From NCBI RefSeq assembly GCF_057098645.1, contig NZ_CM169472.1: 64,000 bases of DNA. One strand, given 5' to 3'. Positions 11,823-33,268 of the stretch are shown one piece after another. How positions within the stretch are numbered: position 1 is the stretch's first letter; each line of letters opens with the position of its first letter. Below the pieces are notes generated by a model. It made no database searches and had not been told where the DNA came from. It saw nothing but the letters and a program-made list of their open reading frames with translations. A program made the translations under genes and the position numbers.

Positions 11823-12287
11823 ATGGAAAAGAAATTACCCCGCATTAAAGCGCTGCTAACCCCCGGCGAAGTGGCGAAACGCAGCGGTGTGGCGGTATCG
11901 GCGCTGCATTTCTATGAAAGCAAAGGGTTGATTACCAGTATCCGTAACAGCGGCAATCAGCGGCGATATAAACGTGATGTGTTGCGATATGTCGCAATTA
12001 TCAAAATTGCTCAGCGTATTGGCATTCCGCTGGCGACCATTGGTGAAGCGTTTGGCGTGTTGCCCGAAGGGCATACATTAAGCGCCAAAGAGTGGAAGCA
12101 GCTTTCTTCGCAATGGCGAGAAGAATTAGATCGGCGCATTCATACCTTAGTGGCGCTGCGTGACGAACTGGACGGATGTATTGGTTGTGGCTGCCTTTCG
12201 CGCAGTGATTGCCCGTTGCGTAACCCGGGCGACCGCTTAGGAGAAGAAGGTACCGGCGCACGCTTGCTGGAAGATGAACAAAACTAA
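11823..12287 (+). CDS. soxR: Redox-sensing MerR-family regulator with [2Fe-2S] cluster
   Basis: 154-aa ORF; MerR HTH ([26 protein letters not shown]) and C-terminal cysteine cluster [12 protein letters not shown]. Confidence 0.95.
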
Positions 12288-12316
12288 AGCGCCACAAGGG
12301 CGCTTTAGTTTGTTTT
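12286..12316. terminator. Rho-independent (bidirectional) terminator after soxR
   Basis: aaagcgcc-acaa-gggcgcttt stem-loop followed by agtttgtttt; A-rich on the other flank. Confidence 0.65.
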
Positions 12317-12430
12317 CCGGTCTTTGTCTTTCTCTCTATCCCGCTGGTACACAGGAGGGTTTCCCCCGACGTCAACACACCTCATTCGAGCACGTGGTGG
12401 AGGTTCCGGTTGGTGTTGATGCTTTAATTG
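12290..12430 (-). ncRNA. ryjA: Candidate small RNA in the soxR-ghxP spacer (position of K-12 ryjA); boundaries approximate
   Basis: K-12 carries sRNA RyjA in this intergenic region, antisense to soxR direction; the shared hairpin at 12286-12316 could serve as its terminator. Not verified by alignment. Confidence 0.25.
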
Positions 12431-12832
12431 TATGTCACCGACGTTTCTTCGCCAGTGTAAAAGTATACTTTTTAGCCGCAATATTTTTGTCATCTCAGAC
12501 GATTTTTTATCGCAATCCAGAACGGTATACGGCTCGCTAACGCTGCAATCTTGCGCATCGACGATAACGTTTGCGCATCAATTGCCTGGTTTTTCATCGT
12601 CAAGACAATAAAAGAGAAAAAAGCAGCAAACTTCGGTTGAAAAAGCCGCTATGATCGCCGGATAATCGTTTGCTTTTTTTACCACCCGTTTTGTATGCGC
12701 GGAGCTAAACGTTTGCTTTTTTGCGACGCAGCAAATTGTCGCAAACCTGGAGCAGGAAGATAACGTTTCGCTGGCAGGGGATTGTCCGCCACGCATCTTG
12801 ACGAAAATTAAACTCTCAGGGGATGTTTTCTT

Positions 12833-30185: not shown

Positions 30186-30335
30186 ATGCCTGATGCGACG
30201 CTGGTGCGTCTTATCAGGCCTACGTCAGACAGCGCAATAGCCTGATTTAGCGTGATTTTGTAGGTCGGATAAGGCGTTTACGCCGCATCCGACATCAACG
30301 CCTGATGCGACGCTTAACGCGTCTTATCGGGCCTA
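30186..30335. repeat. REP/BIME cluster downstream of gltP
   Basis: Three or four REP palindromes (gcctgatgcgacgctggtgcgtcttatcaggcctac; gtcggataaggcgtttacgccgcatccgac; gcctgatgcgacgcttaacgcgtcttatcgggcc). Confidence 0.7.
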
Positions 30336-31120: not shown

Positions 31121-33268
31121 TTACGCCAGTGCCGCTTCGCGCAGGCGAGTTTTCAACTTGTTGTACTCGTCAATCACGTACTGCTCGGCGGCGCGCTGAT
31201 CGGCGATCGGCTCGACGCGCACGGCGCAGTATTTGTATTCCGGCGTTTTCGTAATCGGGCTTAAGTTTTCGGTAACCAGCTCGTTACAGGCACCAATCCA
31301 CCACTGGTAGGTCATATAAATCGCCCCTTTGTTCGGACGATCGCTGACCTGCGCACGGGTGATAATTTTGCCTTTACGCGAGTGCACCCAAACCAATGCC
31401 TCATCTTCAATACCCAGACGTTTGGCGTCTTCGGTATTGATTTGTGCGTAGCCAGGTTCATCAGCCAGCGCCGCCAGTGCCGCACAGTTACCGGTCATCG
31501 AACGGCAAGAGTAGTGACCAACTTCACGCACCGTTGACAGTACCATCGGGTACTCGTCGGTGAGTTTGTCGATTGGCGCTACCCAGTCGCAGGTGAAGAA
31601 CTGCGCCAGACCGTTTGGGGTATCAAACTTCTCTTTAAACAGATAAGAAGTCCCCTGATCGGCATCTGAAGTATCGCGGCAAGGCCACTGAATGAAGCCC
31701 AGTTCGCCCATTTTCTCGTAAGTCGCACCGTAGAAATCCGGGCACAGATGACGCAACTCATCCCAGATCTCCTGGGTGTTGTTGTAGTGCATCGGATAAC
31801 CCATACGGGTGGCGATTTCACTGATGATTTGCCAGTCCGTTTTCAGATCCCATTTCGGTTCAACCGCCTTGAAGAAACGCTGGAAGCCACGGTCAGCCGC
31901 AGTAAACACGCCTTCATGCTCGCCCCACGACGTTGACGGTAAAATAACATCCGCCGCCGACGCGGTTTTGGTCATAAAGATGTCCTGAACGATAACCAGT
32001 TCCAGATCTTCAAAGGCTTTACGTACTGCCGACAGCTCCGCGTCAGTTTGTAGCGGATCTTCGCCCATAATGTACGCGGCACGCACTTCGCCATGCGCTG
32101 CGCGGTGCGGCAGCTCGCTGATGCGATAGCCGGTATGCGCTGGCAGGCTTTCCACGCCCCAGGCTTTGGCGAATTTCTCGCGGTTAGCCGGATCTTTCAC
32201 ATACTGGTATCCCGGATACGTATCCGGCAGCGCGCCCATATCGCAGGCACCCTGAACGTTGTTCTGACCACGAACCGGGTTAACACCCGCATGTGGCTTA
32301 CCGAGGTTACCGGTCAGCATCGCGAGGCTGGTCAGAGAACGCACGGTTTCCACGCCCTGGTAGAACTGGGTTACACCCATGCCCCACAGGATGGCGGCGC
32401 TTTTCGCCTGGGCATACATCCGTGCCGCCTGACGAATCTCACTGGCGCTGACGCCGGTGATATCTTCAACCGACTCCGGCGTGTAGCCTTCAACGATTTT
32501 ACGATACTCTTCAAAGCCTTCTGTACGGGAAGCGACGAATGCTTTGTCGTACAGATTTTCTTCAATAATGACATGGCCCATCGCATTCAACAGCGCGATG
32601 TTCGAGCCGTTTTTCAGTGCAATGTGCATGTCAGCAATGCGCGCGGTTTCAATTTTGCGCGGATCGCAGACGATAATTTTCGCCCCGTTACGTTTAGCGT
32701 TAATTACGTGATTCGCCACGATTGGGTGGGAATCCGCCGGGTTGTACCCGAAAACGAACACTAAATCGGTATTATCAATTTCGTTAATAGCATTGCTCAT
32801 TGCGCCATTACCGACCGATTGGTGCAGACCTGCAACCGATGGGCCGTGTCAGACACGAGCGCAGCAGTCAACGTTATTGGTACCAATAACGGCGCGCGCA
32901 AATTTTTGCATTACATAGTTGGTTTCGTTACCCGTACCACGCGAGGAGCCGGTCGTCTGGATGGCATCCGGACCGTACTTCTCTTTGATGGCGCTCAGGC
33001 GCTCGGCAACGTAATTCAGTGCCTCATCCCAGGAAACAGGTTCGAGTTTGCCGCCACGCTGGCGACGGATCATGGGGGTTTTCAGGCGCGGGGTCAGGAT
33101 CTGGGTATCGTTAATGAAATCCCAGCCATAATAACCCTTCAGACACAGGGTACCCTGGTTGGTTTTCCCCTGCGCTGCCTCCGCCCGGACGATTTTGCCG
33201 TTATCGACGACCAGGTTGATTTTGCAACCTGATGCGCAATAGGGGCAAACCGTGACGACTTTTTTCAT
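31121..33268 (-). CDS. fdhF: Formate dehydrogenase H (selenocysteine, molybdopterin, 4Fe-4S)
   Basis: Two collinear same-frame ORF-track entries (32849-33268 and 31121-32800) separated by an in-frame TGA at 32849-32851 plus 16 codons; total 715 codons. N-terminal CPYCASGC Fe-S motif; ...VDCCARV-U-HGPSV... context. Confidence 0.9.
32800..32851 (-). other. Selenocysteine UGA codon (32849-32851) with the region expected to hold the bacterial SECIS stem-loop
   Basis: In-frame TGA inside fdhF; bacterial SECIS lies immediately 3' of the UGA on the mRNA. Stem-loop not folded by hand. Confidence 0.55.

Follow-up and report, generated by a model that had tools for sequence, protein, structure and literature searches.

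The soxR–ghxP spacer of Escherichia coli contains the small RNA gene sraL, a terminator hairpin, and ghxP control DNA with a candidate structured leader

In the 64-kb window (the whole stretch of DNA analyzed here), soxR and ghxP are separated by a noncoding spacer that is long for a simple promoter region, which raises the question of what the spacer encodes. The soxR stop codon TAA occupies 12285–12287 and the ghxP ATG begins at 12833, bounding a spacer of exactly 545 bp (12288–12832), the length given in an earlier reading of the sequence without database searches (the sequence-only reading). That reading had also dismissed the open reading frames of the spacer as spurious, and our results bear this out: the four longest have no Pfam match, and the indels in the spacer alignments have lengths that are not multiples of three. 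Its proposal that the spacer houses a small RNA (sRNA) holds for one part of the spacer and misses the larger part. Specifically, sraL and its promoter occupy ~175 bp, about one third of the spacer, while the remaining ~410 bp, and with them most of the length, are ghxP control DNA. Taken jointly, we read the spacer as a minus-strand sraL gene, a terminator hairpin that sraL probably has in common with soxR, and a remainder comprising the ghxP promoter, PurR boxes and a folded leader, and we assign this joint reading a probability of roughly 0.96.

The window is E. coli DNA. Several O145 genomes match the 701 bases around the spacer with 100% identity, and 5420 of the 5426 complete E. coli genomes carry this segment. 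Over 601 aligned bp there are four differences from K-12 (at 12475, 12519, 12537 and 12558), all of them outside the sRNA. For comparisons beyond the species, 80 soxR loci were fetched from species-representative genomes; the gene order soxS-soxR-ghxP is retained in Enterobacteriaceae and Erwiniaceae. In other genera, a GST gene occupies the soxR–ghxP region. The idea that the spacer is a relic of such a gene was rejected, as no homology is present in the spacer alignment columns.

The soxR-proximal part of the spacer contains the following features:
11823–12287, plus strand: soxR coding sequence, 154 aa (from the list of open reading frames, in agreement with the K-12 and RefSeq soxR annotation).
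12280–12420, minus strand: sraL (ryjA) sRNA gene, 141 nt (Rfam RF01408; identical to K-12 b4459).
12281–12293 and 12299–12311, both strands: arms of the hairpin common to the soxR and sraL ends, with the loop at 12294–12298 (from the inverted repeat and the fold).
12427–12454, minus strand: predicted sraL promoter, with −10 element TACAAT at 12432–12427, a TAA discriminator at 12426–12424, and a weak −35 element TGGCGA at 12454–12449, separated from the −10 element by a 16-nt spacer.

The minus-strand sRNA, for which the name RyjA had been suggested from the sequence, is indeed RyjA. The match to the Rfam family RF01408 (sraL) spans model positions 1–142 of 142 and scores 153.3 bits against a cutoff of 39 (E 1e-34). 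Furthermore, the curated K-12 gene ryjA (b4459), annotated at 4277926–4278066 on the minus strand, maps to 12280–12420 of the window, at the same site between soxR and ghxP, and is collinear with it and identical at 141 of 141 positions, so that the alignment proposed as a check returns 100% identity over 141 nt. The transcript has its 5′ end at A12420 and its 3′ end in the U-run at 12280, the latter being antisense to the last 8 nt of the soxR coding sequence. The sRNA in the spacer is the long-known SraL (RyjA), which has been catalogued in E. coli since 2001, and its identification is not new.

The sraL gene was detected by blastn or Rfam in 25 further loci, all in Enterobacteriaceae and all between soxR and ghxP; the same searches detected none in 12 Erwiniaceae loci or in six more from Enterobacteriaceae that share the gene order. 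In the 26 Enterobacteriaceae sequences, 95.8% of the cells of the Rfam sraL structure are paired, compared with at most 52% when the partners are slid. Compensatory changes are present in helices 1, 3, 6 and 7, including four of the seven pairs of helix 1. Seven pairs of the structure change on both sides, and none of 500 shuffles reaches the observed covariation score.

A minus-strand promoter, which the sequence-only reading had asked for upstream of the sRNA, is also apparent: TACAAT at 12432–12427 ends 7 nt upstream of the start A12420 and is accompanied by the TAA and, further upstream, by the weak conserved −35 element. The −10 element, TTAA and CTGGC (−35 CTGGCR) are conserved across genera in the 26-sequence alignment. 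By these elements, the sraL promoter appears to be of the sigma-S type. The Salmonella sraL gene has an RpoS-dependent promoter of this architecture, as demonstrated with an rpoS mutant, a promoter fusion and RpoS ChIP (Silva et al., PMC3753932). A simple sigma-70 scan called no promoter on the minus strand of the spacer, as expected for a promoter of the RpoS type with a weak −35 element.

That missing scan call is one of two observations that would favor a simpler account, in which the hairpin is a terminator of soxR only, no sRNA is made, and the spacer is long merely because it holds promoter DNA. The other is that, in the identical O145 records, RefSeq/PGAP has annotated no ncRNA in the spacer. 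Both the full-length Rfam match and the identity to the curated K-12 gene contradict this account, as do the covarying sraL helices, the promoter conserved across genera, and a transcript that has been published repeatedly, including from E. coli, and we consider it to have almost no chance of being correct. That the PGAP records lack the ncRNA reflects incomplete annotation and does not speak for the absence of the gene. Re-identification of the sRNA in itself adds little, and its main value is to show that the automatic annotation of O145 genomes omits sraL.

The hairpin at the end of soxR is a perfect 13-bp helix (arms 100% complementary) with a 5-nt loop. The sequence-only reading had recognized its existence but had placed it at 12286–12316; it actually lies at 12281–12311, 5 nt to the left, and its left arm (12281–12293) therefore spans the soxR stop codon. 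In a 69-nt context, the plus strand folds at −30.4 kcal/mol (z −5.6) and the minus strand at −23.8 kcal/mol (z −4.3), and in each case none of 200 shuffles is as good. The hairpin helix is kept in the 26 sequences, with one compensatory pair. The U/A tracts that had been noted on both sides of the hairpin are roughly as described: on the minus strand the stem is followed by UUUUGUU, and on the plus strand by G-UUUU-CC, with four consecutive U residues only. On the minus strand, the hairpin is the Rho-independent terminator of sraL, as had been proposed, carrying the UUUUGUU tail and called terminator-like by a terminator scan.

On the plus strand, the hairpin most likely ends soxR transcription. 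In every genus examined, the first hairpin downstream of soxR is this one, and, because it is also the first terminator-like structure there, the convergent soxR and sraL genes would share one palindromic terminator. Like bidirectional intrinsic terminators, it is one perfect GC-cored palindrome, A-rich upstream, U-rich downstream, and stable on both strands; in the plus-strand fold, the A-rich upstream flank pairs with the U-rich downstream flank. Unlike them, it has a short plus-strand U-run of four residues (G-UUUU-CC), which is below the criterion of the scan and left the plus strand uncalled, and we infer termination of soxR at this site.

The gene in the window corresponds to SraL/RyjA (K-12 b4459, RF01408 and the Salmonella SraL) in its site, antisense to the soxR 3′ end and upstream of ghxP, as well as in its fold, its sigma-S-type promoter elements and its Rho-independent terminator, with no difference at the level of sequence. 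SraL expression, its binding to Hfq and ProQ, and its targets tig and rho have been established in other strains. The published mechanism is the best supported one for this sRNA because the gene is identical. Accounts of SraL describe association with ProQ, stationary-phase induction and a link to sigma-S (PMC6315103), and SraL transcripts with A as the first base have been used experimentally (PMC12956327). A ryjA transcription start site is recorded for E. coli and Klebsiella in the supplement of PMC3415461. In Salmonella, SraL represses tig by pairing upstream of the tig Shine-Dalgarno sequence (PMC3753932), and, as summarized in PMC6582626, base-pairing of SraL with the rho leader guards against premature termination there.

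By analogy, the sigma-S-type promoter would cause SraL to accumulate in stationary phase and under stress, and the ~140-nt RNA would be stabilized by Hfq and ProQ, as indicated by work in Salmonella and E. coli. Its 5′-proximal region would then pair with the tig leader, lowering the amount of trigger factor, and with the rho leader, preventing premature Rho-dependent termination. Both tig and rho are located outside the 64-kb window. Two further candidates were rejected. Regulation of the neighboring gene ghxP by SraL is not favored, as the best duplex between SraL and the ghxP leader is matched by 58% of shuffled leaders and is no better than random windows either. A 26-aa peptide encoded inside SraL (AUG at 12386) is also disfavored, since the AUG is not conserved.

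The ghxP-proximal part of the spacer, together with the start of the gene, contains the following control elements:
12561–12576: distal PurR box ACGATAACGTTTGCGC, centered at −104 from the predicted ghxP start (published motif; 18.4 bits with a position weight matrix, PWM).
12637–12666, plus strand: ghxP promoter, with −35 element TTGAAA at 12637–12642, an 18-nt spacer, −10 element GATAAT at 12661–12666, and a predicted start at ~12672.
12660–12675: PurR-like box GGATAATCGTTTGCTT, overlapping the −10 element and the start, near −5 (PWM 11.3 bits, rank 7 in the window).
12703–12718: proximal PurR-like box AGCTAAACGTTTGCTT, at about +38 (PWM 19.1 bits, the best in the window).
12818–12823 and 12833–12835, plus strand: ghxP Shine-Dalgarno sequence AGGGGA and ATG (from the sequence and alignments).

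The only sigma-70-like site found by the promoter scan is TTGAAA-18-GATAAT, with 10 of 12 matches. It is present in all 43 syntenic loci examined (31 from Enterobacteriaceae and 12 from Erwiniaceae), and across these loci the hexamers are invariant while the spacer between them varies. In three Erwinia species, this site is separated from the ATG by only ~52 nt, which hold nothing else, and it is therefore assigned as the ghxP promoter, with a predicted start at ~12672. The predicted ghxP leader is ~160 nt long, and from ~12815 up to the ATG its sequence is near-invariant among Enterobacteriaceae. For the T7 run that follows the start, UTP-sensitive reiterative transcription was considered and rejected, as Enterobacter and Leclercia have mixed sequence in its place.

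Three PurR-type boxes surround this promoter. The PWM was built from 27 other published sites, which themselves score 12.2–25.0 bits. Among ~128,000 positions in the 64-kb window, the two highest scores are both within the spacer, at 12703 and then at 12561. The GGATAATCGTTTGCTT box, at 11.3 bits, is just below the weakest training site (12.2 bits). Repression of ghxP by PurR and adenine has been published (PMC3809563, PMC8376909), and PurR ChIP-chip identified a region designated 'ryjA/yjcD' with the motif ACGATAACGTTTGCGC (Cho et al. 2011, PMC3159470). That region maps to ~12186–12816 of the window and cannot separate the boxes because it covers all of them. In the published table of PurR sites, only the distal box at 12561–12576 is present, and the box at 12703–12718 is unlisted.

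Each of the boxes is conserved in its own manner. Of 30 other Enterobacteriaceae loci, 29 have the distal box at −104 or −105, even though the intervening sequence is not conserved. At the position of the GGATAATCGTTTGCTT box, 37 of 42 other loci, from both families, have a box of at least 10 bits, and the segment CGTTTGC downstream of the ghxP −10 element is near-invariant in Enterobacteriaceae. The AGCTAAACGTTTGCTT box is near-invariant in the 31 Enterobacteriaceae and scores 16–24 bits in Erwiniaceae. We infer from these sequences both the binding of PurR at the GGATAATCGTTTGCTT box and, more generally, which of the three boxes PurR uses. In the proposed mechanism, PurR bound to hypoxanthine or guanine would repress ghxP, the gene of a guanine/hypoxanthine importer, through boxes near −104, −5 and +38.

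Among PurR-repressed promoters, operators downstream of the transcription start are found at purB, where PurR acts as a roadblock, and at purR, which is autoregulated. Like the PurR-repressed promoters, ghxP has 16-bp ACGNAAACGTTTGCNT-type boxes in the range of published sites, one of them inside the transcribed region, and a published repression that depends on adenine and PurR. Unlike purB and purR, it has three boxes, of which one is held at a fixed −104 spacing and one is placed over the −10 element. A further difference from these two genes is that the downstream ghxP box doubles as a strand of a covarying RNA helix.

This helix is part of a predicted fold of the ghxP leader, which comprises the following elements:
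12693–12798, plus strand: structured ghxP mRNA leader, ~105 nt (from covariation in 31 sequences).
12695–12702 and 12789–12796, plus strand: P1, which reaches 12693 and 12798 in other species.
12703–12713 and 12762–12772, plus strand: P2.
12720–12727 and 12738–12745, plus strand: P3 hairpin.
12779–12781 and 12785–12787, plus strand: P5 hairpin.

The leader structure is the only part of the spacer that may be new. No description of the fold was found in those papers naming ghxP that were consulted, and, in Rfam 15, no family matches 12421–12900 on either strand at E ≤ 10, placing the leader in no described riboswitch class at that threshold. E. coli, the best-studied bacterium, apparently has, within the leader of a high-affinity guanine/hypoxanthine importer gene, an RNA structure that is supported by covariation but uncatalogued, and three conservatively spaced PurR-type boxes are interleaved with it.

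Covariation among 31 fairly close Enterobacteriaceae species (a set to which Salmonella, Klebsiella, Yersinia and Serratia do not belong) carries the case for the fold. Unprompted, RNAalifold pairs UAUGCGCGG (12694–12702) with CCGCCACGCAU (12786–12796), ~90 nt apart, with many compensatory changes. Across the 31 sequences, 89.7% of the cells of the structure are paired, compared with at most 47% when the partners are slid, and 75 cells change on both sides, whereas shuffles give 23.8 and none of 500 reaches the observed number. Specifically, compensatory changes are present in seven of the nine pairs of P1 and in four of the eight pairs of P3, while in P2, where most pairs never vary, pair 19/88 is C-G in 12 sequences and U-A in 11. 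The same helices are recovered when all 6237 column pairs are ranked by mutual information in a structure-blind test, nine of the 18 best pairs being proposed leader pairs (ranks 1, 2, 4, 6, 9, 10, 14, 16 and 18). Furthermore, the alignment contains 62 G-U pairs and 14 A-C pairs, and this excess identifies the plus strand, the strand of the mRNA, as the folded one.

The fold appears to be confined to Enterobacteriaceae, apart from a diverged version in some Erwiniaceae. When folded one at a time, four diverged Erwiniaceae leaders adopt the same arrangement of P1, box helix and P3, and the junction sequences of the leader are conserved. An automated consensus fold of the Erwiniaceae leaders failed because their alignment is too diverged; the leader covariance model scores only 15–18 bits in this family, and the element is missing in three Erwinia species.

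A riboswitch is expected to have a conserved, structured aptamer with covarying stems in the 5′ UTR, and the leader appears to have this form, its location in the 5′ UTR following from the predicted start. The leader also resembles the riboswitches and structured 5′ leaders of transporter genes, such as the purine riboswitch RF00167: it is a 5′ UTR element of a purine transporter gene, a long-range P1 closes its multi-helix junction, its stems covary, and its junction nucleotides are conserved. It differs from RF00167-type leaders in matching no Rfam family at E ≤ 10 and in that no recognizable expression platform was found.

On this evidence, there is about an even chance that the fold is a functional cis-regulatory RNA, riboswitch-like or factor-binding, that tunes ghxP translation, elongation or mRNA stability in addition to the control of initiation by PurR, with the AGCTAAACGTTTGCTT box serving in DNA and RNA alike. 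Its long-range P1, the compensatory changes in P1 and P3, the C-G to U-A exchange in P2, and the recovery of the pairs by the structure-blind ranking all argue for such a role. So do the excess of G-U over A-C pairs, which points to the mRNA strand, the common layout in the four diverged Erwiniaceae leaders, and the conserved junction sequences. The AGCTAAACGTTTGCTT bases form the 5′ strand of P2, and this strand shows higher conservation than the one it pairs with, as would be expected if it were also an operator and in keeping with a dual role in DNA and RNA.

Several observations weigh against a regulatory function. Neither a terminator nor an alternative that sequesters the Shine-Dalgarno sequence, and hence no expression platform, is visible in the leader folds inspected. 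The E. coli leader is no more stable than its shuffles (z −0.01 for 179 nt and z −1.5 for the 118-nt core). The failed consensus fold and low covariance-model scores in Erwiniaceae, together with the three Erwinia species that lack the element, point in the same direction, and the transcription start is a predicted one and the 31 species sampled are fairly closely related. The more specific proposal, that the fold is an undescribed cis-regulatory RNA of Enterobacteriaceae exerting post-initiation control beyond PurR, by metabolite sensing or factor binding, with 12703–12718 as both operator and helix strand, is put forward tentatively, as somewhat less probable than its negation. If the fold is functional, one compact region would exert two levels of control over enteric purine salvage, and the leader would clearly exemplify selection on a single sequence for two roles, protein operator and RNA helix.

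The helices might instead be by-products of features of the DNA, such as palindromic, mutually complementary PurR boxes or the relics of an inserted element, with no role of the RNA. P2 lends itself to this explanation: its strands come from two boxes, at 12703 and 12757, that are quasi-palindromes of the AAACGTTT type and form an inverted repeat, and most of its pairs are invariant; moreover, the absence of the element from three Erwinia species suggests insertion-like behavior. But P1 and P3, which hold most of the compensatory changes, are without PurR-like sequence, and the P2 pair that alternates between C-G and U-A joins bases of two different boxes, which operator function does not predict. 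A search for paralogous copies of the leader found one place per E. coli genome, and an element that is single-copy is not a spreading repeat. We regard an origin of the helices in DNA features as unlikely. In the window itself, an apparent second copy of the leader and box at 61551–61619 (covariance model 15.7 bits, PWM 11.7) was rejected as a chance match because a minus-strand open reading frame (60778–61566) has its start codon region there.

Two other candidate elements within the leader were considered and rejected. A 22-aa upstream open reading frame beginning at ATG 12695 has no Shine-Dalgarno sequence, and its ATG is replaced by AAG, AAC, CAG, TTG or CTG in other genera. An intrinsic attenuator at GCUUUUUU (12715–12722) would be preceded by a hairpin of only 3–5 weak pairs.

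The SELEX consensus of CsrA is RUACARGGAUGU, and the leader contains three motifs of the CAGNGGAU type that bear a likeness to it:
12753, plus strand: CsrA-like motif CAGGAAGAU.
12775, plus strand: CsrA-like motif CAGGGGAUUGU.
12817, plus strand: CsrA-like motif CAGGGGAUGU, overlapping the Shine-Dalgarno sequence.

The leader could accordingly be read as a CsrA platform, in which a CsrA dimer would use the three GGA motifs to bridge the leader and the ribosome-binding site. The motifs are conserved in other genera as ACAGGGAGAUG, CAGUGGAUUGU and CAGGGGAUGU, and the ghxP entry in Supplementary Data 6 of Potts 2017 records altered expression in a csrA mutant. Against direct binding, the second motif is in a stem rather than a loop, and the same entry, for one growth condition, gives the CLIP-seq peak as 'No' and the direction as −1. 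We consider a CsrA platform quite improbable, more so than an origin of the helices in DNA features. In the Potts 2017 data, ghxP is listed as CsrA-activated alongside xanP, adeP, codB and tsx, and because these genes are listed with it, the effect of CsrA on ghxP looks indirect, by way of purine pools and PurR.

The ghxP control region contains three PurR-type boxes, located relative to the predicted transcription start as follows:
12561–12576, distal box, about −104
12660–12675, box at about −5
12703–12718, box at about +38

Comparison across soxR loci of other genomes (L003–L076) reveals that the distance between the distal box and the ghxP promoter is exactly constant in 29 of the 30 other Enterobacteriaceae loci. 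The intervening sequence of ~60 bp is itself not conserved among them, which hints that the position of the distal box could be subject to a phasing constraint. The distal box is absent from the Erwiniaceae loci compared. One further 16-mer, GGATAATCGTTTGCAT (window 61551–61566), is nearly identical to the −10/PurR-like box of ghxP, with a PurR matrix score of 11.7 bits. Its reverse complement opens the minus-strand open reading frame 60778–61566 (ATG CAA ACG ATT ATC), and the 16-mer was rejected as a chance match.

The loop of helix P3 in the ghxP leader (12728–12737) reads GCAGCAAAUU, as in K-12, while most other sampled Enterobacteriaceae, including another E. coli (L003) and E. albertii (L004), carry a C-rich loop, such as GCCCCUUU. 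By base sequence, the CCCCU of the C-rich type is complementary to AGGGG in the ghxP Shine-Dalgarno sequence. In Erwinia mallotivora, E. psidii and E. endophytica (L039, L040 and L041), both the structured leader (~110 nt) and the +38 box are entirely missing, and the conserved promoter, ~52 nt upstream of ghxP, directly adjoins the ribosome-binding site. The ghxP ribosome-binding region, UCUCAGGGGAUGUUUUCUAUG (12815–12835), is near-invariant across Enterobacteriaceae, a conservation that exceeds what a Shine-Dalgarno sequence requires. A second copy of its motif CAGGGGAU is positioned within the leader (12775–12782).

Upstream of sraL, a perfect 14-bp palindrome, AAAAGTATACTTTT, sits at 12459–12472, corresponding to −39 to −52 relative to the sraL start; it is the same in K-12, but its conservation does not extend to L003, L004 or the other genera. 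Overlap of the sraL 3′ end with the soxR coding end is confined to Escherichia and a single Citrobacter (L009), in which SoxR comprises 154 rather than 152 residues; in most other genera the sRNA stops 8–35 nt past soxR. In Citrobacter youngae, ~150 additional bases are found between the soxR stop codon and the sraL terminator (L005, 4460–4608). The curated K-12 record annotates sraL/ryjA, unlike the RefSeq/PGAP annotation of O145 genomes identical to the window, which contains no ncRNA feature for it (L002, NZ_CP028379.1, 1581–1721).

In most loci outside Escherichia and Citrobacter, sraL is separated from the ghxP control region by a gene for a glutathione S-transferase with Pfam domains GST_N and GST_C (e.g. 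L046, 4755–5425; L025, 4642–5391), and the soxR-ghxP spacer there measures 1.2–3 kb. The L046 gene is split into two overlapping open reading frames, which may reflect a frameshift.

Further Rfam matches in the window, all above the gathering score, are:
19658–19729, plus strand, naRNA4 element (REP-type, nucleoid-associated)
30263–30333, plus strand, naRNA4 element
59650–59730, plus strand, naRNA4 element
62206–62282, minus strand, naRNA4 element
32802–32856, minus strand, SECIS_2 selenocysteine insertion element (87 bits)
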